From the IMG/VR virus record IMGVR_UViG_3300017759_003727, positions 12,074 to 76,073 of that record: DNA of 64,000 nucleotides; one strand, 5' to 3'. The notes beneath the pieces were generated by a model. It worked only from the letters and a program-made list of their open reading frames with translations. It searched no databases and was not told where the DNA came from. Within the stretch, counting starts at the first letter, position 1. Each line of letters opens with the position of its first letter. Made by a program: the position numbers and the translations under genes. Shown one piece after another: positions 3,879 through 48,782 of the stretch. This DNA comes from a virus.

Positions 3879-5740
3879 ATGCTATAATATTCTCCCATAT
3901 CTCCAGTGTATCTTTTTTGTTCATCGGTTTCTTCACGCAATGAATTTAAAACAAAAAATTCTTGAATTCCTCCGTCCCAAGGTTCTGACATATCGCTCGC
4001 AGCGCCAAGGTTTGTTGGTGCTGAATCATTATTTGCGCCATTTAATGCAAGTGAGTTAGTAACATTGCTACTGCTGATAATTTGAAGTCCACTGCCCTTA
4101 GAGCCAATTTGTAATGCTGATTTAGTACCATATCTTGAATCGCTAGAACCCGCTGTTTTTGAATCATGGAACAGGATAACTTGAGGTAGTGCGCTATTGA
4201 AGCCTTCATGATCTTCGTATGTCCCTTCATTTAGCATCCCAGAGGTAAAGGTAATTGGATTTGGAGGACTTCCCTTAAAGCTCATTTGATATGAATTCAC
4301 TGCAGTTTGAACGCTAATTGCACCATGCACAACAAAAGGACCATTACCTTGACTAATACCACCTCCATGAGCCATAGCTGCTTTTTCCGTAGCGTTTTGG
4401 GGTTCATCTACAGAACAAACAATTCCCAATGTTTTGCCTTCTGAACTTGTATTACCAACACTTTGTAACATGCCAGCATTTCCGTCTTCTTTAAATTTCA
4501 TCGTTGGCAAACCATCAACAGTATGTAAAGTTCCTCCAGTTCCTAGAGTTGGAGCTTTACTAGGGCTTGGTTGCGTCCAAATGGCAGTAACGCTTGTGTC
4601 AAAATTAGAACTAACGCTTCCTCCTTCTTTAATAGACCAACTTGTGTGCCCAGTTGGCCTGTTGTCTTTTGCGTCTGCAAGAGTGTTAGAGTATCCGTAA
4701 ACTAGTGGAGTACTATCACTTAAAGCATTTTGTTGTAAGCTTTGTATTTGATGTAATGGATTTCTCTGACTACCTGCCATTCTAGTTGCATTTGTAAAAA
4801 CCCAGCGTACTCCATAAGGACTATTAGAACCAAAATCATGTGGAAATAAAGCACTATAAGAAAAACCTCCACCCGCTGTCAGAGCGTATACTGGATATTC
4901 CTGGTTGCCTATAGTCACACCACTAAATAAAGCCCAATCATGCAAACCTCCATCATCATCAGTCTTGGCAAATCCAGCATAAGTGTTCGCAGAAGATGAT
5001 GCATCTGAAAAGGATAATCCTATACGTTCGCCGCTAATTGCATTGTTTCCAAATTGAAAAGGTACAACTCCGTCAACAGTAGTGCCATTTGGATTTGAAG
5101 AATATCCTGGATTTCCAGTAAATATTGATGAATCGCCTTGGGAATACCATTTTGTCACCCTCAAATCATTACTGAATTTATTATCAGTTGCGTTGCTACC
5201 TTGATTACTTAAATCCGAAAATTCTCCTAAATTAGTAGCACTTAAAGTTTCGGTATTGGAATTAAATCCTGCAAAAAACTCAACAATTTCAGAATCAGAA
5301 GCTATTTGTCCAGCGCTATTGAATTTAATGTCAACTTCTCTTAAGTCAAATCTTCTTTGGACTCTTATGCCGAAACCAGTATAATCTGGATTTATTTTTC
5401 TTAGTCCAAATAATTTGTCTGTATTTGAGAAAAAATCAAATAAAGCTGGGTTATCTCCACGATCAAGAAATTTAGTAATGTTTAGTGGCAAAAATCCAGC
5501 ATCTACTTCATCTGTTTTAAAAACACCTGTAAATGACTCATTCCCTAGCCTATTACTTATTGTTTTATTGTATTGCTTTATAGCTTTTTCTATAGCATGT
5601 AAATTTTGAGAATTACCAGTTGCATAATCATCCTTTAAAAAAGCTATTTTATCTACAACATTATCTTCGCCTTTGCCTGTTAAAGATAAGGTGGATTGTC
5701 CTCTAATTTTTTTTTCTAATTCATGTGGGTTATCTGCCAT
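3875..5740 (-). CDS. Virion structural / tail fibre-like protein with lectin-like (ConA/AbfB-catalytic-like) domain
   Basis: LFGLRKINPDYTGFGIRVQRRFDLREVDIKF motif seen in phage fibre lectin-like domains; G/S/T/N-rich; GTGTAA 10 nt upstream. Confidence 0.65.
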   Translation of the reverse strand: MADNPHELEKKIRGQSTLSLTGKGEDNVVDKIAFLKDDYATGNSQNLHAIEKAIKQYNKTISNRLGNESFTGVFKTDEVDAGFLPLNITKFLDRGDNPALFDFFSNTDKLFGLRKINPDYTGFGIRVQRRFDLREVDIKFNSAGQIASDSEIVEFFAGFNSNTETLSATNLGEFSDLSNQGSNATDNKFSNDLRVTKWYSQGDSSIFTGNPGYSSNPNGTTVDGVVPFQFGNNAISGERIGLSFSDASSSANTYAGFAKTDDDGGLHDWALFSGVTIGNQEYPVYALTAGGGFSYSALFPHDFGSNSPYGVRWVFTNATRMAGSQRNPLHQIQSLQQNALSDSTPLVYGYSNTLADAKDNRPTGHTSWSIKEGGSVSSNFDTSVTAIWTQPSPSKAPTLGTGGTLHTVDGLPTMKFKEDGNAGMLQSVGNTSSEGKTLGIVCSVDEPQNATEKAAMAHGGGISQGNGPFVVHGAISVQTAVNSYQMSFKGSPPNPITFTSGMLNEGTYEDHEGFNSALPQVILFHDSKTAGSSDSRYGTKSALQIGSKGSGLQIISSSNVTNSLALNGANNDSAPTNLGAASDMSEPWDGGIQEFFVLNSLREETDEQKRYTGDMGEYYSI

Positions 5741-5762: not shown

Positions 5763-6533
5763 TTAGAATTCTATTATTTTAAAGAAGCAGGTAACATTGC
5801 CAGTTTCAACCTCGTGGGGATTTGCTGCTGAATATGTGGCTAAAGAAAAATGTTGTCCTGTGCCCCAAGTATTGTGAGCTGTGGTGCCAGTTGCTAAAAA
5901 AACTTGATTTCGACTAACACTACTGCCGTCTGTGAATTTACAACCAGTGATTTCACCATTTTTACTATTCCCAATTAAAAGCCCGCTCCAACTGAAGTCA
6001 CTATCGGAAGCGATAGTATCAAAGTGCATAGCGGCTCTTAAAAATTGAATCTTTTTAAAGGGCACAGCGGCGCCTTGAAAATCCTGTACAAATCTTTGCC
6101 CAAGATATTGCCAAGTGCTATATGCACCTGTATTCCCCGCCGCGTACGTCGCAGAATTGGGAGGAAGAAGCGTTAAATTCCCCGCATCGTTATTAGGGCT
6201 CATTGAACCAGTATGAAGAAATGAATACTGAAGATCTGGCACTCCAGTAGAAAAGTTAGAAGTGCCTGTGTATGAAGAAAGTGTCCCTGTGGCGGTTTCT
6301 AAAATTTGTGTTTTTACATCAAGAGAGCCTGTAGCAAGAGCTAATACTCCAGTAGCCGCTAATAACTCTCCTGTTCGAGTTTGAATTCCGCCAATATCAT
6401 AATTACCACTTATTGTGTCTTCTATACTTTTAAAGGTTATTTTTTTAGTTATAGAAGCGTCGACAGCTACAAACAGATCTGTTGCAACTGGATCAGTAAA
6501 CGCTGTCAATTCTGTAATTTTTACTTCTGCCAT
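5763..6533 (-). CDS. Tail fibre-like structural protein
   Basis: N-terminal MAEVKITELTAFTDPVATDLFVAVD...TKKITF typical of fibre anchor segments; T/S/G-rich; GTGTAA 8 nt upstream. Confidence 0.65.
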   Translation of the reverse strand: MAEVKITELTAFTDPVATDLFVAVDASITKKITFKSIEDTISGNYDIGGIQTRTGELLAATGVLALATGSLDVKTQILETATGTLSSYTGTSNFSTGVPDLQYSFLHTGSMSPNNDAGNLTLLPPNSATYAAGNTGAYSTWQYLGQRFVQDFQGAAVPFKKIQFLRAAMHFDTIASDSDFSWSGLLIGNSKNGEITGCKFTDGSSVSRNQVFLATGTTAHNTWGTGQHFSLATYSAANPHEVETGNVTCFFKIIEF

Positions 6534-6541
6534 AAATATTA

Positions 6542-7054
6542 TTACACTATTTTTATTAAATTAATTTTAAAAAACTCTAATTCTTCAGTATCCATTGATT
6601 CGTCTCTTTCCATTTCTGGAAAGGCTTTTTTTAATAAATTTTGATAAATTTTTGACCTGTGCCTTTTTTTTAAAACAGGCAAAATAAAAGTATTGACACC
6701 TTTTTTATTTAAATCTTTGAAAGCTTCTATCGAAAGCGCTCTAAAAACTTTTTTAGAGTATTTCCCATACATGTGATTCCAGGAAAAAATTTCACATTTA
6801 AATGTTTCGTCTTTTATTACTCCATAAATTAAACATACTAATCCACCGTTATTGTGCGCGCTTAATTGATAAAGGTTTGGATCAAAGCGAATAGCATCAA
6901 AACCATTCAAACAATACATTAATTCTTTGTCGTCCATTAATTTAGAAAAATTGATTTTTATGCAATTTTTTAAGCTTTGTTTATTATATGTCTTGGACAG
7001 CTGATATATTTGATTATCTACTTTTATTTTAGTGTAATACATATTATGGCTCAA
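6542..7054 (-). CDS. Hypothetical protein, possible GNAT-like fold (start uncertain: 7054, 7042 or 6937)
   Basis: GLVCLIYGVIKDETFKCEIFSW...AFKDLNKKGVNTFILP pattern; 5' end overlaps the divergent gpL promoter. Confidence 0.45.
   Translation of the reverse strand: MSHNMYYTKIKVDNQIYQLSKTYNKQSLKNCIKINFSKLMDDKELMYCLNGFDAIRFDPNLYQLSAHNNGGLVCLIYGVIKDETFKCEIFSWNHMYGKYSKKVFRALSIEAFKDLNKKGVNTFILPVLKKRHRSKIYQNLLKKAFPEMERDESMDTEELEFFKINLIKIV
7032..7038 (+). promoter_or_regulatory. Putative late promoter GTGTAAT driving the gpL-K-I-J operon
   Basis: GTGTAA 8 nt upstream of ATG 7046; same geometry at 7 other genes. Confidence 0.7.
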
Positions 7055-8032
7055 GGTTTGAACAGAAAAAATGTAGGATCTGTAATGGATTTAAATCCCG
7101 ATGATTTATTGGAATTTTATTTAATTTATTATAATTTTCCTAGAGACAATTTCAACTATTTAGCCATATGCCCATCATTTAACCGAACCGACTTGAGTAA
7201 GGGGACAACAGATGGGAACGCCATAACATCTGCGCCCCATGTTCAGCAACTAATATGGCAAAAACAACAATACATATCCGTGGCTATGGAGGGCAATGGT
7301 TTTACTGTACAGGGGGATGAAGAATTACCTAGGCCTAATATAAAATTATCTAATAAAGATTTCTTTATGTCCAAATATCTTGCTACCTATGGTGATATGG
7401 TAGGGGCCAAGATCGTAAGAAAGAGAGTTTTTTCTAAATTTTTGGATGATGTTAATTTTTTACCCCACGCAAATCCTTATGGAACAGCTGATGAAGATGC
7501 TGGTTTTCCAGATGAGGTTTACTATATAAATAGAAAATTAACAGAAAATAAATCCTTTATTGAATTTGAACTAGCGACATCTTTAGAGTTAGAAAATATA
7601 AAAATTCCAAATAGAGTGGGTTTGTGTAGATATTGTTATTGGAATTATAGAGGTTATGGGTGTCAGTATAAAGGAGAACCTAAAACAGACTCAACTGGAG
7701 GAGCTTTGAATCCAACAGGAAATAAAGATTTGTGGCAAGGTACTGGTGTCGCATACAACACTGGAGATTACGTATTTTTATCAAATGAAACATATTCCAT
7801 AAGAGATGAAGATGAAATAGATATAATTAACGGCCCATCTATACAGCCATTAAAAACTTATTATGTTTGCACCGATTACCACATATCAACAGAAAACGAT
7901 AGACCATCTGAATCTAGCAAATGGACAGAAGATGTTTGTCAAAAATCACTTAAAGGGTGTAACATAAGATACGGAAATGATTTGCCGTTTGGAGGATTCC
8001 CAGGAACTTATGAATACAATGCACAAATCTAA
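7046..8032 (+). CDS. Phage minor tail protein L (lambda gpL-like)
   Basis: LPRPNIKLSN...GAKIVRKRVFSKFLD...EVYYINRK...EFELAT...CYWNYRGYGCQYKG...CQKSLKGCNIRY...LPFGGFPG with Fe-S cysteines; start moved from 6977 to 7046 on promoter geometry. Confidence 0.92.
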   Translation: MAQGLNRKNVGSVMDLNPDDLLEFYLIYYNFPRDNFNYLAICPSFNRTDLSKGTTDGNAITSAPHVQQLIWQKQQYISVAMEGNGFTVQGDEELPRPNIKLSNKDFFMSKYLATYGDMVGAKIVRKRVFSKFLDDVNFLPHANPYGTADEDAGFPDEVYYINRKLTENKSFIEFELATSLELENIKIPNRVGLCRYCYWNYRGYGCQYKGEPKTDSTGGALNPTGNKDLWQGTGVAYNTGDYVFLSNETYSIRDEDEIDIINGPSIQPLKTYYVCTDYHISTENDRPSESSKWTEDVCQKSLKGCNIRYGNDLPFGGFPGTYEYNAQI

Positions 8033-8399
8033 ATTTTTAAAAAATTTAAAAAACTTTTCAGAATCCTCTCCAGTAAAAGAGGTTTGTGGATTTGTCGTAT
8101 ATGATGAAGAATTTGATATTTTGCAAAGTAAAAACTATTCTCCACTTCCAGAAATGTTTGAAATACACCCAGCAGATTTTTTAAAGATAAAAAAAACTGG
8201 CAAACTGGTTGCTATATTTCATACACATGTGAGTGGTGATGCCAAATTATCTGAATTTGATTTTAAAAACGCAAGACAAGCTAGAATTCCATATTTAATA
8301 TATTCATTAGACACAAATAAGTTTGAATTATTTTATGAATCTAATTTTGAAATAAAAGAAGATGTAATAGAAAAATTGAAAGGAATAATAAATGGTTAA
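8010..8399 (+). CDS. JAB/MPN metalloprotease-domain tail tip protein (gpK N-terminal-like, no NlpC/P60)
   Basis: KEVCGFVV...AIFHTHVSGDAKLSEFD (E, HxH, SxxD JAMM motif); lies between gpL and gpI. Confidence 0.85.
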   Translation: MNTMHKSKFLKNLKNFSESSPVKEVCGFVVYDEEFDILQSKNYSPLPEMFEIHPADFLKIKKTGKLVAIFHTHVSGDAKLSEFDFKNARQARIPYLIYSLDTNKFELFYESNFEIKEDVIEKLKGIING

Positions 8400-8973
8400 A
8401 GTTATTCTACACGGTGATCTGTGTGAAGATTTTGGTTACTCCGAACTTCAACTCAAGGTAAAAACAAAAAAAGAAGTAATGAAAGCTTTGTGCGCAAACT
8501 TTCCAGGTTTTAGAACTAAATTACAGAGAAAAGCTCAAGACGGTTTATTTTACAGGATGGTTGATGAAGAAGGAAATATTTGCGAAGAAATTAAAGACTA
8601 CGATACAAAGTGCCCCGAAGAAATTCATTTAGTACCAAGTATAATTGGTAGTGGGCCAGTTGGTTTGATTTTAGCGGGTGGTGGCCTAAGTTATTTTGGC
8701 GGTTATACCGCTCTTGCTGGAAGTTTTTTGGGTAAAATGTTATTCAACATTGGTGTGTCTTTATTGATTCAAGGTATACAGCTTTTGTTAGCTGGAGAAC
8801 AACAAGGTCCCACACAAGAAGTAGCCGTAGAAACACAGAGTTTTATATTTCAAAATACTAACAATACAGTGGTTCAAGGTTTTGGTATACCAATTATCTA
8901 TGGACAAATAAGACTTGGAAGCAAAGTGATTTCCACAAACCTAGAATCAGTAGACATAAGTGTAGAAGCATGA
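8392..8973 (+). CDS. Tail assembly protein I (lambda gpI-like)
   Basis: VILHGDLCEDFG...EVMKALCANFPGF...IHLVPSIIGSG, hydrophobic segment, QGFGIPIIYGQIRLGSKVIS. Confidence 0.9.
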   Translation: MVKVILHGDLCEDFGYSELQLKVKTKKEVMKALCANFPGFRTKLQRKAQDGLFYRMVDEEGNICEEIKDYDTKCPEEIHLVPSIIGSGPVGLILAGGGLSYFGGYTALAGSFLGKMLFNIGVSLLIQGIQLLLAGEQQGPTQEVAVETQSFIFQNTNNTVVQGFGIPIIYGQIRLGSKVISTNLESVDISVEA

Positions 8974-11900
8974 GTAATTATAAAAAATATTTTTCAAAAA
9001 CTAATCAGAAATTAAAAATTGCTGGTGCTGGTAGTAAAGCTGAACCTAGTAATTTAATACCTAATAAACGTGCTTTCGTAAAAGAAAGTTATAGTCTGTC
9101 AAGTACAGTTGATTTGGTTTCTGAAGGGCCAATAGGTGGTTTAGTTGATGTAGATGGAAGATATTTGGCAGGAGATGAAAACGATATAATAGAAACAGTT
9201 CCATCTGAAGATAATGTTTTAAGTTCTAAGGAAGGTTTTATATTAAAAGGTTTTCCAGATAAATTTTTAAATCAAACTTACTTACCAAAGGTTTCAAATA
9301 TCCCAGGAAGTTATAAAAAGCTTAGGTCTAAAAAATCCTACAGAACTATAATTATAGTTGATTTAAGTTCGAACTCTGAAAGACATTTAGATGCGATAAA
9401 AGAAAAAGTACAAACAGTAATTGAGTCAACCAACTTAATGAAAGCGGCTGGATATCAAATAGACTTTACATTAGTTGGGTTAGGAGATCAAGGGCAAGTA
9501 ATACGGCAAGAATTGGTTGGTTTTGGTCATTATACGTCACTTATTCCAGTATTTGGAAGCTTCCAATATTTAGATGATATATCTAGAACAACTAATCCAG
9601 AAAAGATTTATAACTCAATAAGTAACGCTACAACCCTAGTAGAAGGAGATGGCAAAAGTAGAACGTCATATACTGAAGCGATAGCGAATATATTAGATGA
9701 ACAAGGAGACAGAGGGTATTATCCAAATGCCTTTATTGTTATTGGGGCTAATCCAGATACTACTACCAACAAATCGGTTGCACTAGAAAGAATAGAAGAA
9801 TTAGCGCAAACAGCAGCGGTTAAGAATGCGACTAATCGAGGCATAGTAAATGTGTCAGATCCGACGCAGGGGAACACAATTCTTACATTTGGATTTAGGC
9901 TTCATGTTTTGACAATTGACATTGGTAATGGAGAGATGGAAAGATCTCTAAGGGCTGTAAAAAATGCTTCGCTTAATATTGAAACAAAAGAATTTCAGTC
10001 AGATAAGACTGTATTAGATGTTTTTAAATATATACAACCAAACTTATTAGGCACTTCGTCATCTAAAGTATATAGAGGTTTTGAGGGAGCTAAAAATCAG
10101 TTACATCCAAAAGATGTTCCACAACTAGCTTTTGACGGATCAAATTGGGCTATAACAAATCTTGAGGGTAGTGTTATATATTATACTTGTCCAGAGGACC
10201 GTTTTTCATATAATCTTTTTTATGGGTTCGACATACCTTGGACAGCATCTGAACAAGCTGCTGGACCAGCTGGGGAAACATATTTGTTAAATGGTTTAAC
10301 GCTCGACAAAGGTGTTTATTTTGACGAATTACAATTAAAAACTGATAGAGGCAAACAATTCGCAAAATACAAAATAGAACAAAAGCTAGGAAGCGAAAAC
10401 CAAACCGCATCAAAAATAGTGCCTAAAGCTGTAAGATTACACACTAAGAATTTTAAATTATTGGGGCCTTACGATAGGGACATTAATGGAGCTAGAGCGG
10501 GAACGGGAAGCGCTGATATAAGAAAATTTAATAGTGATACTGCAGGAGGTAGCAGAAACTTCACCGATTGGCAATCATTTGATCCAGCGCAAACAGATCC
10601 AAGTATTTTTTATCATGAAGTGACAGATGAAGACGTAGATTCTTTGGATCTTGAAATACAAATATCTCAATTATCAGATACTCAAAGTTTTTCTTCAAAG
10701 GGTGATAATAAAAGTGGAAGAGCAACAATGGGTAGAAATCTAGCTACCACAATAAAATACTCTATTACTTTAGAACTTGTTTTTAGAGATGGAACAACTG
10801 AAAATAGATTATTAAATTTAAAAATACCACTTAGCGATAAAAAAGGTTTTCAAACCGTTAATACCGAATCAGCTAGTATAATTTCCGTAAAGGGAATTAT
10901 AACAGCACCTTATTCTTTCACCATAAAAGATATTGTATTACCAGAAAAAACAGATGATATTGTGAAAAGAGTACTTAAGGTTGAAAAACTAACTTATGAA
11001 ACTAATTCGAACCTTATAAATAGATTGACTCACATAAGTTCTGTTGCAGAAAGAAGTAAATATAGTTTTAATTACCCTTATTCAGCTAGTATTGTAACAT
11101 CTTTAGACGCAAGAGCTTTTGACGATATGCCCAATAGAACTTTTAAACTTAAGGGCAAAAAAATATTAATACCTTCAAATTATTTTCCAACTGATGAAGC
11201 TGGATTGGATAGAAGATTTTCTGAAGATTCGTCTACTGCTGGAAATCTTATATATGATGGGTTATGGGATGGAACTTTCAGATATGATTGGTCAGACAAT
11301 CCAGCTTGGATTTTATTTGATTTATTAAATAACTTTAGATATGGAACCGCTTTATACAATAGAGATTTAGAAAATATAGATATATGGTCTTTGTATGAAA
11401 TAGGAAGATACTGCGACGCTGTGGACGATTATGGGAAGTTTGAGGGCTTGACTGATGGTTTCGGAGGTTTGGAACCAAGGTTTTCATACAACCATAAAAT
11501 AGATGGAGATAATGAAGCATTTACGATTATAAAAGACATCGCTAAATTCATGCGTTGCTTAGTATACTATAAAGATTCTCAAGTACAATTCAAAATAGAT
11601 AAGCCAGAACAAGCATCTATGCTATTCAATAATTTAAATGTAGTAGATGGATTGTTTAATTATGCAGACGTTGTAAAAAACTCTAGAACAAGCTCTGTAG
11701 ATGTAAGTTTTTTAGATAAGAAAAATAATTATAGACCAAGAACAGAATATGCAGAAGATCGAGACGCCATAGAAAGATATGGTTACTTAAAGCAATATAT
11801 TGATGGCTTTGGACATACTTCAAGAGCTTCAGCTCAAAGGAGTGCAAGAAATATAATTTTTGACTCAACTCATGCAACTGAGACTGTTTCTTTTGCTGCT

Positions 11901-14900
11901 GGATTTGAAGCTGCTTTATTAGCTCCAGGAGATATAATAAAAATTGATGATGAGATGAAATCTTTGGAAAAGAATTACGGTATGTTTTTAACACAAACAG
12001 GAGCTAATTCTGAAACTCATAAATACCCCAATGGAGCTTATGGGCCAACTGGACTTATAGTCGATCATCAAATAGGCAGTCAAACTGGATTAATTCCAAC
12101 TGGAGAAAACAATGAAAGCTATATATATCTTTATAACGCGTCGAACTCTACAAGTTTAAGAGAACTTTATGCCAAAAAAGATAATGCAAGGGTCACTTAT
12201 ACCGATGAAGAAATTTCTGGATTAAAAAAACCTAAAATAAGTAAATTACAAATTGATACTGGCGCGCATCCTTTCCAAAATTTAGGAGACGATAGTATAT
12301 TAATTAAATTAAACCCTAATCAAAACTTTCCACAAGATGCTGGGTATTTTCCATCAATGACCCCATATTCGGTTGACATAACTGGAAGAGCGGAAAAACA
12401 ATATAGGGTATTAAGTGTTAAAGAAAATGAGGACTCTACATATGCAGTTGGGGCCATCATTTATCATAGCGGTAAATATGATGTAATTGAAAAAAATGTA
12501 AACTTTGACCCCACTCAAGACAATTTTGATGTATCATTGCAAAGCAATGTATCTACTTTACCCCAAATACCCGCTTCAATAACCGCCAGAACAGATCTTA
12601 GTGGAGTGAATAAATTTGGAGCGATTGATCATTTTTTTGATATTGTAAATAGCGACCCAGTTCAAGCAGATCAATATAAAATATTTTTAACTTATCCAAG
12701 CAATAGAAGTATAGTTTTACCTAGATTACTAAGAACTGGCTTAGGAACTAATGAAGGAAATACATCAGATAATGGAAAAACACAACTTGCTATTACTGGA
12801 GAACTTATTAATCAATTTGGAACTTATGAATTAGAAATTTTCTCTGAGTTTACTAAATACTACACCAAGAGATCTACTAATTCTAGATCTGTAGAATTTA
12901 CTGTTACAGCGGACGATCTAGGATTAGGAAATTTTGGTAAGGTTGTAACTTTCGATGGCATTACCAGCAAAAATCAAGATGATGTCTTTACTGAAAATTT
13001 CGCCAAACAATTAACGGGGACTTCTTTAGTTGGAGAATCAGATAGCCAAGGTTCAAGATTAACGAGAAATGATAATGATGATAGTTTTTTAGATTTGTCA
13101 CTGCAATACGTAGATTTTGTTGGAAATAATGCATTAGACCAAGGATACAACTTGGCTTCTGAATTTCATTTTTATGACAGTAATCCTGGATCTGGCATGT
13201 TCAACGCAGTAGAATTAGCTTTTACTGGAAAAATTGGTATGGATAAATTTGTTGTTAATAAAAGCAACAATCATGAAAGCCTTCAAGTTTCTGTTACTGG
13301 ATTAAAGAGTGGTTTTGATTTTGAAGAAGCAAATTCTACATGTCTGAATAATAAATTTGGCATACAGACAAGTGGTTTCAGTGGTGCAAGAGGTGCGGAT
13401 CGCTATGGTACTGGATACCATGTTAAATTTGCAGAACAATTTAAAGGTTCACCAGTTGTGTTTATACAACAGGTGATGAAAAGCGGTATATCTTTTACTG
13501 ATTATGATAATTTAGATACTTATAATATAACACCTTCTGTTGTCCGCGCAAATACCACGGGATTTATTCATAATACTATGTCAAATGACGTGTCATTTTT
13601 TAATTATTTTGCTTTTGAAACTGGAGATTTTAGAATAAACAATCAAAGATTTAAGGTAAGGAGGGTAGAAAAATCAGATTACGCTGATTTACAAGTGGAT
13701 TTTGCGGATTCATTTACAGGTCAAAGAAATGAAAATGTTGTAAACAAAAAAAATCCAATAGTATTCGTACAAAAACAAGCAAATCAAAATGAAATTAGTT
13801 TTGTTGGAGGGACAATTGCACAAGTTTTGAATGGGACTAACAGCGGCTTTAGTCTTAGGGCAACAAATATTTATGGTTGTTCAGATACTGGTGATTATGG
13901 ATACTTAGCTATAGAACAAACAAATGATAATGTAAACGAATTCAATTTCCAAGTAATTGATGATGACAAAACACAGTTCACTGGAGGAGACATATTTTTA
14001 ACTGATGGATTGCTTTCTCCTTATAACTCTGGCATAGAAAATATAAATTATACAGATTTTGGAAGTGGAACATTCAATTATAGGGCATCGCATTTTTATC
14101 AAGATGGTTCTCAAAAAATATCTCAACCTGGAGATAAATTTGATTACTATCAAGTTGATTTTTTAGCCCAAAATGATGGTTTTGTTGGTGACACTTCTAC
14201 ACACACTCGATTTGAAACTCAAGCTGCTGTTGTAGATGGCGGAAACAAAACATCTGGTAATTGGGTAAGATATAGTGATGTTGGGGCATATAATAATACT
14301 GGAATTTTTGCAACTGGTTTGGATGCTGAGGGAGATAATGTTAAAATTCACTTTAATCAAAACACCTTACATAGTAGCGGAAATTTAAATATAGGGAAAA
14401 AAGGATTTTCTGTTTTAGGCTGGTTCCAATTTAAAGAAGATTCAGATCAATGGGCTACTTTAATAGATAATTGGCATGGCACTGGATTTGTTTGGAGACA
14501 AAGTGGTGGATACAACCAAATATTTGCAGGTACAGGAAACAGTCAATCTAATGTTGTTAATGTAGCAGAAAATTTAAATGACGGGAAAACCCACTCAATT
14601 TTTGTAAGCGTTGGTAATAATGGAGCTGTCACTTCTTGGGTAGATGGTGAGAGAACGACAGGTACTAGTGTTGACCCTTGGTCAGAGACACCAAGTGGAT
14701 TAAATAATTTAGGTGTTTGTAGCTTTTTGGGGTCTCAAGGTAATGGAGGAAACGCTGGATGCCCGTTAACTGGACAAAGCTTGAGTAGTGGATTTGCCCA
14801 AAATTTCATGTTCATAAAAGATGGAATAATGGACGATAACTCTGCGAAGCTTTATTCTGTAAATCCATATAAGGCATATATTGCAACTGACAATTGGGCA

Positions 14901-16397
14901 ATTCTAGACTTTCACTTTGGCACAGGTGCGCTTGCTACCGATAAAGGAGGTCTGAATGTTGTACCGACCTATGGTTATAGTATTTCTGGAGGAATAACAG
15001 GCAACGTGATTAAAACTTTACCCATCAACGATGGAAACACAGTAAATCAAAATATAAACTACACAACAGGCGTTAGGGATTATAATGTATTTATGATCGG
15101 AGGAGTTTCTGGAGATGTCAATTTCTCAACTAATCATAACGGCATAAGTGGAAACAAATATACGGAAGATTTAATTTTAAATATGAGTCCTTTTAGAGAT
15201 GGTATTGGGTTTGATGCTTTTGTATCAGATATTGATAACTTTGCTGATTTTGAAAGTGGAGAACATAGAGAGGAGATAATCATACCAGAAGGAAAAATTA
15301 GTGGTGTTCCTCTTTATAGTGGATTCAATGCGGGACTTGAGTTTGGTGAAGAATTTGAAAACGAATCTGTCGTAACAATAGATTTTCAACATTCTAATCC
15401 TTTAATTTATAGATATCCAACGGGAATAATCTTTACAGGGTTCAGTCATTACACAGGTGTAGATAGTAACGGTAACTTTATTGATGGAGAAACTGGTTGG
15501 TACCTTACTAATTCTGGAGGAAATGTAGATGACCCAACGGATTATGGAAATGTAGCGATTACTACTTTGGGAGAAACCACAGCAACTACTAGCTCTACTA
15601 CAATGGAAGGATTTTTTAGTGGACACCAAAATATAGTCTCAGTAAAATTCTTTACTGGTAGTCAAAGTGGTTTTACTTTTAATCCTTATTCTGATGATTT
15701 CGCATTTGAAAGAGATGTTAATTTAAGAATTGAAACTGGTTTTTCTGGAGGAAATGGCGGGCTTGGAATATATCAAAGAGAATTTATATTTACTAACAAC
15801 GATATTGATTCGAACACTGGAATGATTTTTTATTCAGCTATACCATATTCACAATTAGGGCCGATTCTTAATATGCAAACTGGACAACTAGCTTCTCATA
15901 AAAATTTAAATAATCCATTTGGAAGCTTTAGGTTGGACGAACATGTATTTAGTGGTAGAATGTTTACTGGATTTCCAGATTTTAATGATGACCACCCAAA
16001 TGTAGAACCAACTAATTCAAAAACATCTGCATTAGTTAGTCAAGGTAATTTAAAACTTACTGGAGAATGTCATATTTATATTTCAAGAGAATCTGGATTA
16101 TCTGATTTGCAATTTAATGATGAAACATTTGTTGTCTCACATACTGCTGGTGAAGTAGAATTCAGAATAGATACTGGAATAGCAGATGGAATAGGTATGG
16201 ATGACGAATGGTCAATGACAATTGATCAAAGAACAAGTAGCTCTGTAAGGGTAAGAGACGCTCAAAATAATGCTACAGTAGCTACTGCTGCAACATCAGC
16301 AGGTGCGGTTAGTAAAAGTAATAGCAATGAAGCTATGATAACTGTAACTTACGACAAGACTTCGAACAAAATTTTATTTAGAGAATTTAGTTCTTAA
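8970..16397 (+). CDS. Central tail fibre / tail tip protein J with vWA-like insertion and C-terminal lectin-like (H-type-like, LamG-like) domains
   Basis: VDLVSEGPIGGLV; YSFNYPYSASIVTSLDARAFDDMPNRTFKLKGKKILIP; WDGTFRYDWSDNPAWILFDLL; EPRFSYN; FAAGFEAALLAPGDIIKIDD; QYRVLSVKEN - gpJ hallmarks. Confidence 0.92.
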   Translation: MSNYKKYFSKTNQKLKIAGAGSKAEPSNLIPNKRAFVKESYSLSSTVDLVSEGPIGGLVDVDGRYLAGDENDIIETVPSEDNVLSSKEGFILKGFPDKFLNQTYLPKVSNIPGSYKKLRSKKSYRTIIIVDLSSNSERHLDAIKEKVQTVIESTNLMKAAGYQIDFTLVGLGDQGQVIRQELVGFGHYTSLIPVFGSFQYLDDISRTTNPEKIYNSISNATTLVEGDGKSRTSYTEAIANILDEQGDRGYYPNAFIVIGANPDTTTNKSVALERIEELAQTAAVKNATNRGIVNVSDPTQGNTILTFGFRLHVLTIDIGNGEMERSLRAVKNASLNIETKEFQSDKTVLDVFKYIQPNLLGTSSSKVYRGFEGAKNQLHPKDVPQLAFDGSNWAITNLEGSVIYYTCPEDRFSYNLFYGFDIPWTASEQAAGPAGETYLLNGLTLDKGVYFDELQLKTDRGKQFAKYKIEQKLGSENQTASKIVPKAVRLHTKNFKLLGPYDRDINGARAGTGSADIRKFNSDTAGGSRNFTDWQSFDPAQTDPSIFYHEVTDEDVDSLDLEIQISQLSDTQSFSSKGDNKSGRATMGRNLATTIKYSITLELVFRDGTTENRLLNLKIPLSDKKGFQTVNTESASIISVKGIITAPYSFTIKDIVLPEKTDDIVKRVLKVEKLTYETNSNLINRLTHISSVAERSKYSFNYPYSASIVTSLDARAFDDMPNRTFKLKGKKILIPSNYFPTDEAGLDRRFSEDSSTAGNLIYDGLWDGTFRYDWSDNPAWILFDLLNNFRYGTALYNRDLENIDIWSLYEIGRYCDAVDDYGKFEGLTDGFGGLEPRFSYNHKIDGDNEAFTIIKDIAKFMRCLVYYKDSQVQFKIDKPEQASMLFNNLNVVDGLFNYADVVKNSRTSSVDVSFLDKKNNYRPRTEYAEDRDAIERYGYLKQYIDGFGHTSRASAQRSARNIIFDSTHATETVSFAAGFEAALLAPGDIIKIDDEMKSLEKNYGMFLTQTGANSETHKYPNGAYGPTGLIVDHQIGSQTGLIPTGENNESYIYLYNASNSTSLRELYAKKDNARVTYTDEEISGLKKPKISKLQIDTGAHPFQNLGDDSILIKLNPNQNFPQDAGYFPSMTPYSVDITGRAEKQYRVLSVKENEDSTYAVGAIIYHSGKYDVIEKNVNFDPTQDNFDVSLQSNVSTLPQIPASITARTDLSGVNKFGAIDHFFDIVNSDPVQADQYKIFLTYPSNRSIVLPRLLRTGLGTNEGNTSDNGKTQLAITGELINQFGTYELEIFSEFTKYYTKRSTNSRSVEFTVTADDLGLGNFGKVVTFDGITSKNQDDVFTENFAKQLTGTSLVGESDSQGSRLTRNDNDDSFLDLSLQYVDFVGNNALDQGYNLASEFHFYDSNPGSGMFNAVELAFTGKIGMDKFVVNKSNNHESLQVSVTGLKSGFDFEEANSTCLNNKFGIQTSGFSGARGADRYGTGYHVKFAEQFKGSPVVFIQQVMKSGISFTDYDNLDTYNITPSVVRANTTGFIHNTMSNDVSFFNYFAFETGDFRINNQRFKVRRVEKSDYADLQVDFADSFTGQRNENVVNKKNPIVFVQKQANQNEISFVGGTIAQVLNGTNSGFSLRATNIYGCSDTGDYGYLAIEQTNDNVNEFNFQVIDDDKTQFTGGDIFLTDGLLSPYNSGIENINYTDFGSGTFNYRASHFYQDGSQKISQPGDKFDYYQVDFLAQNDGFVGDTSTHTRFETQAAVVDGGNKTSGNWVRYSDVGAYNNTGIFATGLDAEGDNVKIHFNQNTLHSSGNLNIGKKGFSVLGWFQFKEDSDQWATLIDNWHGTGFVWRQSGGYNQIFAGTGNSQSNVVNVAENLNDGKTHSIFVSVGNNGAVTSWVDGERTTGTSVDPWSETPSGLNNLGVCSFLGSQGNGGNAGCPLTGQSLSSGFAQNFMFIKDGIMDDNSAKLYSVNPYKAYIATDNWAILDFHFGTGALATDKGGLNVVPTYGYSISGGITGNVIKTLPINDGNTVNQNINYTTGVRDYNVFMIGGVSGDVNFSTNHNGISGNKYTEDLILNMSPFRDGIGFDAFVSDIDNFADFESGEHREEIIIPEGKISGVPLYSGFNAGLEFGEEFENESVVTIDFQHSNPLIYRYPTGIIFTGFSHYTGVDSNGNFIDGETGWYLTNSGGNVDDPTDYGNVAITTLGETTATTSSTTMEGFFSGHQNIVSVKFFTGSQSGFTFNPYSDDFAFERDVNLRIETGFSGGNGGLGIYQREFIFTNNDIDSNTGMIFYSAIPYSQLGPILNMQTGQLASHKNLNNPFGSFRLDEHVFSGRMFTGFPDFNDDHPNVEPTNSKTSALVSQGNLKLTGECHIYISRESGLSDLQFNDETFVVSHTAGEVEFRIDTGIADGIGMDDEWSMTIDQRTSSSVRVRDAQNNATVATAATSAGAVSKSNSNEAMITVTYDKTSNKILFREFSS

Positions 16398-16887: not shown

Positions 16888-17140
16888 ACATATTTACAAA
16901 ACAAAAATAAATAGTAAGCAACATTGGGAAAGCTACTTTACGTTCATAATGAGCCAAGGTTGACGCTAGAGCTGCTATAAAAAATATTGGATACACAAGC
17001 TCCATTGTTGGATTGTCCGCAGTTATAGCTAAGTATAAAGAAGCAGAAACAGCAAACACAAAACTAACAACTTCTAGGTAAAAAGCCTTCCGATTTGACA
17101 GAAAGCTTTCTACCCAAAAACCCTTTACTTTAGAAATCAT
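16856..17140 (-). CDS. Small three-TM membrane protein (conserved aquatic-phage family)
   Basis: KAFYLEVVSFVFAVSASLYLA...LVYPIFFIAALA...FPMLLTIYFCFVNMFG. Confidence 0.7.
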   Translation of the reverse strand: MISKVKGFWVESFLSNRKAFYLEVVSFVFAVSASLYLAITADNPTMELVYPIFFIAALASTLAHYERKVAFPMLLTIYFCFVNMFGFGRACGFW

Positions 17141-17859
17141 AATAACTTCAATAGTTTACGACACTCTTTGGCAGGAATATCTTTATATTCTTCCCAAGAT
17201 TTAATAATTTCTGGATCGTTTGTATAATCTTCACTCTTATAAAGCTCTCTAAGTTTGTTTTTGAAGTCTACAAAGGTAAGACCTGCTTTTTCTCTTAAAA
17301 TGCCTTGTGGGCTAATATCTTTAGCTGTAGAAGGCGAATTTGTTTGAATTGGAGCTTTGTCTTTAGAAGAATCTATCTCATCAGCGCCAACAATGTGAAT
17401 ATTTAAAAAATTACGGACACAACGTACAAAAGCACGATTTTCAGCAATACATTCTAAGAATTTTGCAGCGAAACCGTTTGTGTTATTTGTTGTAGCATTT
17501 GCAATAGAAGCAAAAGTTTGTGTGCCATTGCTTTCGTAATTTTCAATCCAACTAATCATACACTGAGTAACAACACGTTCATCTGAGGATTCTGCAATAT
17601 CATATGTAACATTGTGGAAACCACGTAGTCTAGCTAACTCTTTGATACCGCTTAACTTAATAAGTAATTGGCTATCGTCTAAACCATCTACTGATTTGGG
17701 AACAGGCATCTTACGAAATTCGAAATAATCCTTATTAGGATATAAATGATCTGATTTAATCATAGCTCTCCAATTGACAGAGCCGTCTTCATTAAAAACA
17801 TAATCAACTGATTCTAGTAGACCATGTTCGTTTCTTTTGTATTTTTCTGGATTACTCAT
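17137..17859 (-). CDS. Putative Rad52/Sak-like ssDNA-annealing protein
   Basis: LLIKLSGIKELA...VVTQCMISW...CIAENRAFVRCVRNFLNI resembles the AEtRA.gRAlr motif of Rad52-like recombinases. Confidence 0.45.
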   Translation of the reverse strand: MSNPEKYKRNEHGLLESVDYVFNEDGSVNWRAMIKSDHLYPNKDYFEFRKMPVPKSVDGLDDSQLLIKLSGIKELARLRGFHNVTYDIAESSDERVVTQCMISWIENYESNGTQTFASIANATTNNTNGFAAKFLECIAENRAFVRCVRNFLNIHIVGADEIDSSKDKAPIQTNSPSTAKDISPQGILREKAGLTFVDFKNKLRELYKSEDYTNDPEIIKSWEEYKDIPAKECRKLLKLL

Positions 17860-18988
17860 ATAAATATAAACTTTCTAATTCTTGTTTTGAAGTATCATTT
17901 AATACAAACTTTTCACTATTGTCAAGCGAATTCGCAGATAAACGAGAATTAAACACCTTTCCTTGAGAAATAAAACGTTTTTTGCAGAAAAATTTTGTTT
18001 TATCAGATATTTCTGACACTTCTTGACCTTGAATTTCTAAATCAACAAGATAATCAAAGTATTTTAGTCTTAAATCTTTGAGGTCTTCTTCTTTTTTAGC
18101 TAAAACTACAAGTTCTATTTTGTTTTTTTTAATTTTTTTAAAAAAATCAGAGTAATCTTTATTCAAATCTTTTATTTTAAAAGTTATTCTTTTTGTGGTT
18201 TGTTTGATAGCATTTAAATGTTCATCCATTAGTTCTTCGTCAATAACTAAATGAGATAAACACATTCTGCACCAGTTAATAATATTGTTTAAATCAAAAT
18301 GTAGGTCACCTCTAATATTTACTGGACGATTATGCAGTTCTTTTGAATAAGCAAAAAAGTTTGGGACAATCTCTACAAGAGGAGCGTTATATAAAGCACC
18401 CGCTCTTACTGTTTTGAATGGAATTTTAAAATCAATATTTAGTTTATCTAAAACCGCTTGGGCTAAAGATTCTGGTTTCACCTCATTAATTCTTTTTACT
18501 GGCTCTTGGTCAGCAAAAGATGGTTTAATTTCTTCAAAATTTGGAGATAGTAATGAAACCTTTTCTGGATCACTCCAATATGGATAACAGGTTTCTTTGT
18601 ATGTGTGAGAATAAAGAGAAACGATAGGTATACCAAAAGCACTTGCAATATGAACTGGTAAACTATCTATGCCTAAATGTAATTTTGATTTACTAATAAT
18701 ATAATTTGTTTGTCTGTAGGTGCATCGATTAAATAACTCGTCAACACCTTGAATAGGTTCAGCCTTGGGGCCTCCTACTTGAATTATCTTATAACCTAAC
18801 TCTTTTAATTTAGGGCCTAATAGACCAAGACAAACATCCCAATAATCATATTGTTTGGGTTGAACATCTGTATCCATGTGGAAAGTAATATATTTTTCAT
18901 GTATTACTGGATAATAATGTTTTTGAATTTTTGGTTTGCCAACCTTAACTCCTAAATCTTTTGCGTAAACTTCTACTAAGTGACTCAT
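17852..18988 (-). CDS. GT9 (heptosyltransferase-like) C-terminal domain protein plus unknown C-terminal domain
   Basis: KIIQVGG...IISKSKLHLGIDSLPVHIASAFGIPIVSLYS is the GT9 signature; GT9 N-terminal Rossmann domain absent. Confidence 0.8.
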   Translation of the reverse strand: MSHLVEVYAKDLGVKVGKPKIQKHYYPVIHEKYITFHMDTDVQPKQYDYWDVCLGLLGPKLKELGYKIIQVGGPKAEPIQGVDELFNRCTYRQTNYIISKSKLHLGIDSLPVHIASAFGIPIVSLYSHTYKETCYPYWSDPEKVSLLSPNFEEIKPSFADQEPVKRINEVKPESLAQAVLDKLNIDFKIPFKTVRAGALYNAPLVEIVPNFFAYSKELHNRPVNIRGDLHFDLNNIINWCRMCLSHLVIDEELMDEHLNAIKQTTKRITFKIKDLNKDYSDFFKKIKKNKIELVVLAKKEEDLKDLRLKYFDYLVDLEIQGQEVSEISDKTKFFCKKRFISQGKVFNSRLSANSLDNSEKFVLNDTSKQELESLYLYE

Positions 18989-21162: not shown

Positions 21163-21798
21163 ATGCCAAGGAATATTAATTTACCCAAAACTAGGGTTTT
21201 TATAAGGAAAGATATGTGGGGTGGTTCTGAGAAAGAATTTGAACCAGCATGGTTAGTTTCAGTTAGGGCATTAAGAGGTAGACCTTTTTGTTTTCAAGTA
21301 TGGGTTGATGGCTTTTGCGCTTGTTACGATAAGGTTAGATTAGACTGCTTATACTGGAAAACACCAGAAAAAGATCACGAAAAACTAGATTTAGTTGACG
21401 TGCAAATGTGGGAATGTTTATCAAATGATATAGAATTATTTCACAAAGCACAATTAGCAGACGTTCCTATGTTGGTCAACATGGGAGATGGTGATTTTCA
21501 AGAAGGGAATTACTGGTTTACTATAGACTGCATACCAGAAAAACAATCTTTGGGGTACTTAGATGTTGGCGATTCTGATTTGCTTGATGAACACAAAGAA
21601 ATGAATGTAATTAAGTTGAAGAATGGTCAAGTAGCTATTTATCCAAATAATAGATTAAAATGGATTCCAGAATCATTGAGTAGTATTGAAGCTATCAAAA
21701 ATATCCCGAAATGGGAAGTTGCAGAAAACGCAATATGGGATAAAGAATGGTTGGAGCAACCTTATGAATTATTTGGAGATTCAGATTGGAGCTATTAA
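21163..21798 (+). CDS. Conserved phage hypothetical protein
   Basis: NINLPKTRVFIRKD...AWLVSVRALRGRPFCFQV...QVAIYPNNRLKW resembles a family of T4-like aquatic phages; start reassigned to 21163 (GTGTAA 8 nt upstream). Confidence 0.7.
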   Translation: MPRNINLPKTRVFIRKDMWGGSEKEFEPAWLVSVRALRGRPFCFQVWVDGFCACYDKVRLDCLYWKTPEKDHEKLDLVDVQMWECLSNDIELFHKAQLADVPMLVNMGDGDFQEGNYWFTIDCIPEKQSLGYLDVGDSDLLDEHKEMNVIKLKNGQVAIYPNNRLKWIPESLSSIEAIKNIPKWEVAENAIWDKEWLEQPYELFGDSDWSY

Positions 21799-40620: not shown

Positions 40621-40622
40621 AA

Positions 40623-48773: not shown

Positions 48774-48782
48774 TTATACGCA

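Follow-up and report, generated by a model that had tools for sequence, protein, structure and literature searches.

The window, the whole 64,000-nucleotide stretch analysed here, is part of a viral contig without head genes (CheckV completeness 61%). Its tail, fibre and sugar genes are listed below, in several cases with the number of Ser-Gly plus Thr-Gly pairs (S/T-G) observed against that expected; for each protein the expectation was taken from 1000 composition-preserving shuffles.

2799..3878, minus strand: 359-aa GT2 protein beside the fibre genes (PF00535, E 1e-7)
3875..5740, minus strand: 621-aa Gly/Ser/Thr-rich fibre-like protein, an internal control (12 S/T-G against 13.0)
5763..6533, minus strand: 256-aa fibre (14 against 5.3, z 4.7; 14 of 24 glycines preceded by Ser or Thr)
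6977..8973, plus strand: homologs of the tail tip proteins gpL, gpK (JAB) and gpI (PF05100; PF14464 on homologs)
8970..16397, plus strand: 2475-aa gpJ-type central tail tip protein (PF13550, phrog_31)
11970..16397, plus strand: C-terminal 1475 residues of gpJ, holding 65 of its 67 S/T-G sites
17137..20667, minus strand: conserved trio of a 240-aa protein, a 378-aa protein with a GT9 C-lobe and a 560-aa GT4-like protein
21795..22937, minus strand: 380-aa protein (6 against 2.1 for the whole protein, all six in its first 120 residues)
35434..50597, minus strand: sugar-nucleotide and transferase island (Pfam)
57447..60518, minus strand: 1023-aa distal tail protein of unassigned family (35 against 18.9, z 4.3)
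60520..62511, minus strand: 663-aa gpM/Dit-like distal tail protein with a C-terminal extension (Foldseek)
62508..63950, minus strand: C-terminal part of the tape measure protein (PHROG tape-measure matches)

In this phage and many relatives, a number of outer tail and fibre proteins contain S/T-G pairs at about twice the composition-based expectation. Five proteins of the window, picked because they score high and all rich in Gly, Ser and Thr, were pooled: the 256-aa fibre, the GT2 protein, gpJ, the 1023-aa protein and the 663-aa protein. Among the 400 dipeptides, Thr-Gly ranks first in this pool (83 against 34.5, a ratio of 2.4) and Ser-Gly third (65 against 39.3, a ratio of 1.65), Thr thus being dominant, while the reverse pairs Gly-Thr and Gly-Ser stand at expectation. 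The remaining 65 ORFs hold 47 Thr-Gly against 47.3 and 58 Ser-Gly against 71, and the non-structural proteins of the phage are mildly depleted in S/T-G (72 against 85). Asn-Gly is also depleted in the enriched proteins (21 against 34.7), as it is in the C-terminal part of gpJ in all three relatives (observed/expected 0.48–0.63), and Asp-Gly is only slightly raised (39 against 30.7). DNA words matching S/T-G are enriched in the coding frame only, in genes lying on both strands, and the signal is therefore at the level of protein. BLAST detected no similarity among the five enriched proteins, which are therefore independent proteins that converged on the same dipeptide. The excess in these proteins is real, and independent relatives show it in their counterparts too. 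Pairs of trivial structural origin are counted as well, an example being TGVTGQVG, the Rossmann motif of the Gmd enzyme.

Twelve of the 14 pairs of the 256-aa fibre are Thr-Gly and two Ser-Gly, and the Thr-Gly pairs at residues 54, 61, 68, 82, 89 and 96 keep an exact seven-residue register. Pfam and PHROG searches with this fibre returned no match; its homologs in the relatives L002 (271 aa, 14 against 5.2) and L003 (244 aa, 10 against 5.2) are enriched as well. The nearby GT2 protein (11 against 4.4, z 3.5; 11 of 28 glycines preceded by Ser or Thr) carries its GT2 motif at the N-terminus, in residues 9–54 only, and has no homolog in L002, L003 or a third relative, G078. For gpJ as a whole 67 sites were counted against 37.3 (z 5.6), and these are very unevenly spread: residues 1–1000 are depleted (2 against 10.8), whereas residues 1001–2475 hold 65 against 26.9 (z 8.6), or a site about every 22 residues across this 1475-residue part. 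This protein shares 27–30% identity with lambda J, the conserved J core spanning approximately residues 640–1200, and BLAST found no internal repeats in it. The 663-aa protein (21 against 7.8, z 5.6; 21 of 50 glycines preceded by Ser or Thr) was matched by Foldseek to the JBD30 baseplate (8rk3_D), the Chi tail tip (8vjh_B) and lambda gpM (8iyk_E; TM 0.83 by target), and its homologs give a faint match to PF05939. No Pfam or PHROG match was obtained for the 1023-aa protein, and a predicted lectin-like LamG fold, with Atlas matches scoring below 0.85, is offered as a lead only. The 380-aa protein, likewise without Pfam or PHROG match, is conserved, lies near the GT9/GT4 pair, looks enzyme-like beyond its first 120 residues, and has enriched homologs (8 against 2.3 and 7 against 2.8).

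The excess is restricted to distal tail and fibre proteins. It is absent from gpL, gpK, gpI, the replication proteins and the tape measure (24 against 27.4 over its full 1459 aa, which run beyond the window). A preliminary description of this DNA, made by eye, had counted glycines preceded by Ser or Thr, and its figures for the 256-aa fibre, the 663-aa protein, the GT2 protein and RecA (3 of 28) are exact. It was also right that the 621-aa fibre (12 of 68) is not clearly enriched, that the 1023-aa protein is enriched and that dozens of sites, including the peptides it quoted, lie in the C-terminal half of gpJ. The term "tube-like" for the 1023-aa protein found no support, and the range of 5763–16397 to which the signal had been assigned does take in the fibre and gpJ but leaves out the enriched genes at 2799–3878 and 57447–62511. 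The description further suggested that sugar coats the virion; the putative capsid protein (1 against 3.6), tube candidate (0 against 1.7) and putative portal of G078, identified only by their position next to the terminase, are not enriched and lend such a coat no support.

The sites are kept in place among relatives. In the gpJ C-terminal part, 54 S/T-G sites (83%) are retained in the homolog P0007 and 38 (58%) in P0008, and Gly-Ser/Thr pairs are retained far less (35% and 25%). Ser or Thr preceding Gly stays Ser or Thr in 88% and 65% of cases in the two relatives, against 47% and 36% for other Ser and Thr residues, and Gly following Ser or Thr stays Gly in 88% and 71%, against 60% and 51%. 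The two gpJ proteins closest to each other have about as many lineage-specific sites as chance would give (11 against 13.8 and 16 against 12.4), and Ser and Thr were exchanged at 7 of 54 kept sites compared with 24 of 89 other Ser/Thr positions (p 0.06). Insertions of P0008 that are not homologous to the window's gpJ show an excess too (32 unique sites against 21.6).

A hydrophobic residue (F/I/L/V/W/Y/M) is found at position -1 or +2 of 68% of S/T-G sites against 53% expected, a bias shown neither by Gly-Ser/Thr nor by Asp/Asn-Gly. In fibres the pairs recur in short repeats, 'TGDQxISGxKxF...NGTGVLLSGE' in the fibre of the relative G052 and 'xTGxF' repeats of about 11 residues in that of L013 (67 against 24), and the motif 'K[ST]GD[TS]M[ST]GxL' occurs in fibres of unrelated proviruses without the GT pair. 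The latter resembles the case described here in placing S/T-G at fixed positions of a recurring motif, to which the G052 and L013 repeats are related; unlike it, the proviral motif is found once per fibre with no overall excess, whereas the present phage group spreads the pairs through non-repetitive globular domains of unrelated proteins. The AF2 model of the 663-aa protein was the one usable model (mean pLDDT 68.5; that of gpJ reached 27). In its confident regions sites 136 and 549 are predicted just before a strand, 618 in a hairpin turn, 212, 474 and 499 just after strands and 84 at a helix C-cap, a heterogeneous geometry made up mostly of strand ends and hairpins.

Across phages, no excess was found in lambda J and Stf, T4 gp34–37, the J protein of Rhizobium phage L338C or 16 near-complete proviruses, and the excess is therefore not a generic β-turn bias. 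It is characteristic of a large low-GC group of uncultured siphoviruses in which the split GT9/GT4 pair is also present. Among loci anchored on gpJ, J z-scores of 7.6, 6.7, 6.3, 4.0, 3.95 and 3.7 were obtained in six of nine GT9-positive records, and the 16 near-complete proviruses without GT9 gave values from -2.3 to 1.6 (Mann-Whitney p 1e-4, kinship ignored). Anchoring on the GT9/GT4 pair instead, 36 of 80 loci hold an ORF with z >4, and among the 809 ORFs lying no more than 10 kb from the GT4-like gene 52 exceed this value, against one for the reverse dipeptide. The block with the highest enrichment in G054 (78 against 31.5 and 27 against 7.5) lies directly next to the pair.

Within the phage group, the link between the excess and sugar genes is loose. 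The strongest excess of all, in the G052 fibre (94 against 36, z 11.5), comes from a 74-kb record without GT2, GT1, GT9 or sugar epimerase genes; G034 and G039 possess GT9, GT2, GT1 and epimerase genes and no enriched large protein; and G078 (83% complete) lacks the ADP-heptose genes and keeps the excess, all four records being partial. In L156, L157, L133 and L136 the pair lies next to giant proteins that are not enriched. The co-occurrence of the excess with transferase genes is strong group-wide but has exceptions in both directions within the group, and phages without glycosylation genes are divided: lambda, T4, L338C and the 16 proviruses show no excess, G052 does.

The sugar genes of the window fall into two sets. 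In the conserved trio, the 378-aa protein matches PF01075 (GT9, E 5e-6) over half the domain only, and the 560-aa GT4-like protein matches PF00534 (E 0.004) and phrog_2170. The latter contains a CxxC...CxxC insert that is invariant in five homologs and that resembles, at sequence level, only the ribosomal protein L37a zinc ribbon (E 0.008). The GT4-like gene is present in more than 500 IMG/VR loci, and in many IMG/VR loci homologs of the trio adjoin tail genes. In the window the trio closes the far end of the replication-gene operon, convergent with gpJ; since the pair would converge on any late operon located there, its adjacency to tail genes is weak evidence. The island encodes GT2, GDP-mannose 4,6-dehydratase, epimerases, a CMP-type cytidylyltransferase, a deacetylase, a DegT aminotransferase, DUF5672-GNAT, a PfkB-type kinase, a nucleotidyltransferase and an FkbM methyltransferase, and is mostly missing from G078. 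Candidates for ADP-heptose synthesis in the window are a PfkB kinase domain, a cytidylyltransferase-like domain and an epimerase; a proposed SIS isomerase (39264–39890) has no Pfam match. Of the transferases named in the preliminary description, "GT90" is without Pfam support even at E 0.5 and the "Maf-like" protein is sub-threshold.

We consider it most likely, with a probability of roughly one half, that the S/T-G pairs are conserved structural elements, turns and strand boundaries, of the β-rich outer tail proteins of these low-GC uncultured siphoviruses. The Gly would break or turn the chain and the preceding Ser or Thr would probably cap it; in fibres the pair would mark fixed positions of short shaft repeats, and in the globular distal domains of three proteins (gpJ, the gpM/Dit-like one and the 1023-aa one) it would sit at strand ends and hairpins. 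We infer that the selective force is folding or stability and not enzyme recognition. Consistent with this are the constraint on fixed positions beyond that on other Ser, Thr and Gly residues, the absence of site turnover and rarity of Ser/Thr swaps, the periodic use of the pair in fibres (the heptad register of the 256-aa fibre, G052, L013 and the proviral motif), the hydrophobic flanks, the strand-adjacent sites of the AF2 model, the dissociation from sugar genes in G052, G034, G039 and G078, and the trivial structural pairs of the kind seen in the Gmd motif. A fold-specific cause, however, would not predict that unrelated proteins converge on one dipeptide, nor does it sit easily with the unenriched β-rich tail proteins of lambda, T4 and L338C and three unenriched LamG-bearing proteins of G054. 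The enriched P0008 insertions, the mild depletion in non-structural proteins, the heterogeneous geometry in the usable model and the co-distribution with the GT9/GT4 pair across the wider group argue against it as well. If the role is structural only, the pair would provide a compact, easily scored signature of outer tail proteins in very abundant uncultured phages, useful for annotation and fold modelling, and the question arises what led unrelated proteins within a single lineage to the same turn.

The main competing possibility, which we think unlikely, is that S/T-G or a subset of it is the acceptor of a phage O-glycosyltransferase decorating distal tail and fibre proteins, the candidate enzyme being the GT9/GT4 pair, perhaps with help from the tail-linked GT2. 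Between sugar-attachment sites and structural turns the sequences do not decide. Confinement to outer tail proteins, convergence of unrelated proteins, mild depletion elsewhere, specificity to the phage group bearing the pair, the enriched ORFs around the GT4-like gene, the G054 arrangement and the many sugar-nucleotide enzymes of the window would all suit an acceptor. Against it stand the records G052, G034, G039 and G078, the four loci with unenriched giants, the operon layout that accounts for the adjacency, the hydrophobic flanks and lack of turnover, the unenriched putative head and tube proteins of G078, and a density in gpJ that would be unusual for a modification. That the whole group of more than 500 loci uses these turns as acceptors of a split GT9/GT4 O-glycosyltransferase, sugar-coating its receptor-binding apparatus, accordingly strikes us as doubtful. 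Were it true, phage tails would have a first defined protein-glycosylation sequon, and mycobacteriophages would cease to be the only phages with an example of this kind; dense glycans on receptor-binding proteins could affect host recognition, particle stability and evasion of defences in the environment, and a new two-residue acceptor would be available for protein glycoengineering.

The closest known parallel is the BAHT family (Aah/TibC with AIDA-I/TibA), in which a GT9-related enzyme and an ADP-heptose supply, as may be the case in the phage, accompany a β-rich, Ser-Gly-laden surface protein, and in which a structural turn doubles as acceptor. One TibC-modified Ser of TibA is that of an N-S-G-G sequence (PMC4358343), and by analogy with the β-helix repeats of AIDA-I/TibA the phage motif could be turn and acceptor both. 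The analogy, drawn in the preliminary description, nevertheless turns out weak. TibC and AAH modify Ser, not Thr (PMC4358343), whereas Thr-Gly dominates in the phage; the phage GT9 is split and weakly matched; and a phmmer search of all PDB sequences with the 378-aa and 560-aa proteins (E <=1) returned neither TibC nor WaaC. The Cys4 iron finger of BAHT lies in the catalytic C-lobe, and the Cys4 insert of the phage is zinc-ribbon-like and belongs to the GT4-like protein; the candidate substrates are tail proteins and not autotransporters; and G078 retains the excess without heptose genes. The glycosyltransferases of mycobacteriophages Che8, Corndog and Myrna are proposed to modify the phages' own virion proteins, with glycans on the C-termini of capsid and tail-tube subunits (Freeman et al. 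2023, as cited in PMC12619734). Here, by contrast, the candidate sites are internal, dense and hydrophobic-flanked and occur in distal tail proteins only; in G078 neither the putative capsid protein nor the tube candidate is enriched. Nonulosonate O-glycosylation of the Maf/flagellin type was considered and rejected: the MptE-like match scores 20.5 bits against a cut-off of 34.6, and no NeuB- or PseI-type synthase is among the Pfam matches of any island ORF in this incomplete genome.

It is considerably less probable that the pair serves a reader which is not a glycosyltransferase, for instance a kinase-like enzyme of the phage, an assembly chaperone or a rule for avoiding proteases, or that it replaces deamidation-prone Asn-Gly turns in long-lived particles. 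The conserved, enzyme-like 380-aa protein with its S/T-G-rich N-terminus near the GT pair could suit such a reader, but no candidate reader has a family match. The Asn-Gly depletion speaks for replacement, yet only about 14 such pairs are missing, far fewer than the roughly 74 surplus S/T-G pairs, and Asp-Gly is barely raised.

Post-hoc selection, gene duplication and bias in composition, codons or DNA words could each produce such an excess as an artefact, and the choice of five high-scoring, Gly/Ser/Thr-rich proteins might be cited in favour. This reading is already refuted by the composition-preserving shuffles with the reverse dipeptide at expectation, the frame-0 signal on both strands, the dissimilarity of the enriched proteins, the independent relatives and the unenriched Gly/Ser/Thr-rich 621-aa fibre and tape measure, and deserves almost no weight.

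The structural elements favoured here are set in a tail tip that is recognizably lambda-like, with gpL, JAB-type gpK, gpI, the gpJ core and a gpM-like fold all present. Unlike in lambda, whose J and Stf proteins are free of the excess, gpJ is lengthened at its C-terminus by about 1300 additional residues, gpM has grown to 663 aa and the tail genes are arranged in two distant, oppositely oriented blocks.

Tail proteins of this phage carry a genuine and strong excess of Ser-Gly and Thr-Gly pairs ([ST]G), which is directional, conserved and specific to the lineage. The reading with the best support, to which we assign a probability of about one half, is that these pairs are structural turn or strand-boundary elements of the outer tail proteins of this lineage. 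The preliminary description had instead proposed [ST]G as a candidate acceptor sequon of a phage-encoded O-glycosylation system, likened to Aah/TibC acting on AIDA-I/TibA; for the outer tail proteins, we consider such an acceptor role unlikely.

The window belongs to an 82.9 kb virus contig (G000; GC ~32%, completeness 61% by CheckV), on which, at that level of completeness, no terminase, portal or capsid genes were found. The annotated phage collection contained neither a close relative nor near-identical DNA. The window is rich in sugar genes; among the enzymes previously proposed, the 'GT90' (41983-42939) lacks Pfam support, the 'Maf-like' transferase matches below threshold and the SIS isomerase has no match. 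As for a DNA hypermodification role of the sugar genes, no thymidylate-synthase-like hydroxymethylase was found in 83 kb, 39% of the genome being missing from the contig. The features that matter here are the following.

Features of the window
Lambda-type tail tip: gpL (PF05100), JAB-type gpK, gpI and a 2475-aa gpJ (PF13550, phrog_31)
Second, distant tail block: tape measure, a 663-aa gpM/Dit-like protein and a 1023-aa protein
Fibre genes
Replication operon: Pol III alpha, exonuclease, primase, DnaB, RecA and RNR
17137-20667, minus strand: trio of a 240-aa protein, a 378-aa GT9 C-lobe protein and a 560-aa GT4-like protein with a Cys4 insert

The two tail blocks lie ~40 kb apart in opposite orientation, a split shared with the related loci L089 and L091 and the related genome G078. 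Genes for rIIA-like (phrog_612) and rIIB-like (phrog_609) proteins are present outside the window in this siphovirus-type contig (L093, 5657-9531).

Expected [ST]G counts were obtained by shuffling each protein with its own composition kept. All the hand counts of the preliminary description were reproduced, and five proteins are enriched.

Observed and expected [ST]G pairs in the five enriched proteins
256-aa fibre: observed 14, expected 5.3, z 4.7
GT2 protein (359 aa): observed 11, expected 4.4, z 3.5
gpJ: observed 67, expected 37.3, z 5.6
1023-aa protein: observed 35, expected 18.9, z 4.3
663-aa protein: observed 21, expected 7.8, z 5.6

Two further proteins rich in Gly, Ser and Thr, the 621-aa fibre (12 vs 13) and the tape measure (24 vs 27), show no enrichment. 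When the five proteins are pooled and the 400 dipeptides ranked by over-representation, TG comes first (83 vs 34.5) and SG third (65 vs 39.3); GT and GS are at expectation, and NG falls below it (21 vs 34.7). In the remaining 65 ORFs TG occurs 47 times (47.3 expected) and SG 58 times (71 expected). Within gpJ, all but two of the 67 sites are found beyond residue 1000 (65 vs 26.9, z 8.6), and in the GT2 protein the excess stems from a short low-complexity insert and the C-terminal 80 residues. Some small excesses are trivial, such as that due to the TGxTGxxG Rossmann motif of Gmd. An extended motif, [S/T]-G-x-T, is not a feature of this phage (3 observed, 11.9 expected). DNA words for [ST]G are enriched in the coding frame (frame 0) only, through 25 distinct codon pairs and in genes on both strands, so that the signal lies at the protein level and DNA-word or codon bias is rejected as its cause. 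Since no BLAST similarity was detected among the five proteins, nor internal repeats in gpJ, duplication does not account for the excess, and shared ancestry is likewise rejected at the BLAST level. That unrelated proteins converge on [ST]G is a point in favour of an acceptor role.

Residues 1-1000 of gpJ (8970-11969 of the window) are significantly depleted in [ST]G (2 vs 10.8, z -3.1), a depletion not common to its relatives (14 vs 12.3 and 8 vs 11.4). The 53 non-structural ORFs of at least 100 aa in the window are also mildly low (72 vs 85, observed/expected 0.85; reverse dipeptide G[ST] 92 vs 85), several enzymes having no site where 2-3 are expected; for ORFs of unrelated proviruses the ratio is 1.10.

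The excess is not general to fibres or to gpJ. It was not seen in lambda J (13 vs 14.9) or Stf (16 vs 13.1), in J of Rhizobium phage L338C (25 vs 25.9) or in T4 gp34-37 (z 0.05, -0.4, 0.7 and 0.7), and the J proteins of 16 near-complete proviruses gave z-scores of -2.3 to 1.6. Among 80 IMG/VR loci anchored on gpJ homologs, 12 of 688 ORFs exceeded z 4, against a single one for the reverse dipeptide, and all 12 reside in loci having further tail genes in common with this phage. Distal tail proteins of the relatives L089, L091, G052, G054 and G078 carry the excess. As a single-sequence query against phage records and IMG/VR the 663-aa protein retrieved no relatives; its homologs in a library of 1.8 billion proteins have a mean [ST]G z of 1.3, with 29 of 150 above 3, and a mean of 0 for the reverse dipeptide. 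The trait thus marks a lineage of large low-GC siphoviruses, of 80 kb to more than 110 kb. A lectin-like (LamG) fold is rejected as its cause: PF13385 was not detected in this phage genome, and three tandem paralogs of ~780 aa with LamG_3 in G054 (15609-22638) are all unenriched, whereas four other proteins of that genome are strongly enriched.

Selection acts on the sites. The same excess is seen in two gpJ relatives from metagenomes, P0007 (53% identity; 76 vs 35.6) and P0008 (42%; 78 vs 42), which keep 54 and 38, respectively, of the 65 C-terminal gpJ sites at the same position. The whole [ST]G pair is retained at 83% and 58% of sites, whereas G[ST] is retained at 35% and 25% and [DN]G at 65% and 40%; a Ser or Thr preceding Gly remains Ser or Thr in 88% and 65%, against 47% and 36% for other Ser and Thr residues. 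Exchange between Ser and Thr at kept sites is rare (7 of 54). Site turnover is lacking in the closest gpJ pair, where lineage-specific sites are no commoner than chance (11 vs 13.8; 16 vs 12.4), which argues against an acceptor. Relative to the more distant P0008, unique sites do exceed chance (27 vs 17; 32 vs 22), partly because the extra non-homologous segments of P0008 are themselves [ST]G-enriched.

The hydrophobic context of the sites likewise counts against an acceptor. A hydrophobic neighbour is present at 68% of [ST]G sites (53% expected), a bias not shared by G[ST] or [DN]G; Trp, Pro, Phe and Ile are enriched at -1, and Phe, Val and Leu after the Gly, followed by Tyr, Leu and Ser. In the 256-aa fibre, TG recurs at residues 54, 61, 68, 82, 89 and 96, in exact 7-residue register. 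The 663-aa protein gave an AF2 model (from 40 sequences, mean pLDDT 68.5) that matches the tail-tip proteins of JBD30 and Chi and lambda gpM; sites modelled with confidence are predicted to border strands on either side, to fall in a hairpin turn or to sit at a helix C-cap. Some sites of this protein (136, 627 and 88) are [ST]G in most of 40 distant homologs. The model of gpJ 1700-2300, built from a three-sequence alignment, was unusable (mean pLDDT 27).

An acceptor role also draws on the distribution of the sugar genes. Across the whole group, the excess and the GT pair (the GT9 and GT4-like proteins of the trio) go together (Mann-Whitney p 1e-4 on J z-scores, uncorrected for kinship). The trio is very widespread, the GT4-like protein matching more than 512 IMG/VR loci (50-77% identity in the best 80). 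Within 10 kb of it in those best 80 loci, 52 of 809 ORFs exceed z 4 (one for the reverse dipeptide), with at least one such ORF in 36 loci. In this phage the trio ends the replication operon, convergent with gpJ, as in L002 and L003, and in G054 it adjoins the most enriched block (78 vs 31.5; 27 vs 7.5), J of that genome being unenriched. However, wherever the trio was seen (the window, L002, L003, G034, G054, G078 and L110-L189) it ends the replication operon, and its adjacency to whichever late operon converges is therefore poor evidence that the two are functionally linked.

Inside the group, excess and sugar genes are only loosely linked, and the two dissociate in both directions among the partial records concerned, which lowers the likelihood of an acceptor. 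G052 (74 kb, 50% complete) has a 1765-aa fibre with 94 pairs against 36 expected (z 11.5) and seven more ORFs above z 2.5, J included, yet GT2, GT1, GT9 and sugar epimerase genes are all absent from its 74 kb. G078 (112.8 kb, 83% complete), which shares 62 proteins with this phage, lacks at that completeness the ADP-heptose genes, DegT, GT2, the deacetylase and the MptE-like gene, and keeps the excess in J (51 vs 29), a neighbouring fibre (14 vs 5.5) and a 642-aa protein (38 vs 20.8). Conversely, G034 and G039 possess GT9, GT2, GT1 and epimerases without enrichment of J, the tape measure or other giant proteins; in L156, L157, L133 and L136 the GT pair adjoins unenriched giant proteins.

The sugar coating of the virion envisaged in the preliminary description is not supported by the proteins concerned. 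In G078, the ORFs downstream of the large terminase (phrog_2), putative portal, scaffold/protease and capsid genes by position only, have z-scores of 1.1, -1.0 and -1.5, the tube candidate has no [ST]G where 1.7 would be expected, and the tape measure does not depart from its expected count; the excess thus appears confined to the distal tail, and these unenriched head and tube candidates count against an acceptor. Mycobacteriophages differ in this respect, the whole particle being coated, with glycans on the C-termini of capsid and tube proteins (Freeman et al. 2023, as cited in PMC12619734). TibC and AAH act on Ser but not on Thr, two mapped sites being the Ser of N-S-G-G and of T-S-A-A (PMC4358343), whereas Thr-Gly predominates in the proteins of this phage, a preference that again disfavours an acceptor. 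The analogy is useful in one respect, since a structural turn of a β-rich protein can double as an acceptor. The literature search turned up no account of an S/T-G sequon, or of tails bearing glycans, in tailed phages.

TibC itself has a β-barrel at its N-terminus, together with a hairpin thumb and a Cys4 iron finger (PMC4358343). A sequence search of the PDB with the phage GT9 and GT4 proteins retrieved neither TibC nor WaaC, and a TibC-like sequence in the pair is rejected on that search; the Cys4 insert of the GT4-like protein, with its invariant CxxC...CxxC, looks like a zinc ribbon. No family was found for the 240-aa protein beside GT9, the nearest named leads being single-strand annealing proteins with scores often at chance level. 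In the 378-aa protein (17852-18988) the GT9 C-lobe spans residues 17-144, and residues 260-362 are weakly similar to an adenine DNA methyltransferase (7m6b_B, E 0.001).

A 380-aa protein (21795-22937), conserved in relatives, is [ST]G-rich in its N-terminal 120 residues; it matches no family, and its C-terminal part contains a stretch, HFDIKKSSILY ... NFENS, reminiscent of kinase-type catalytic loops. In other systems Pro/Thr linkers are a classic location of O-glycosylation, and a 701-aa tail protein of the related locus L013 (11480-13585) begins with ~100 residues made up purely of Pro/Thr repeats (PTPTPPP...), after which comes a domain rich in [ST]G (40 vs 12.1, z 10.2).
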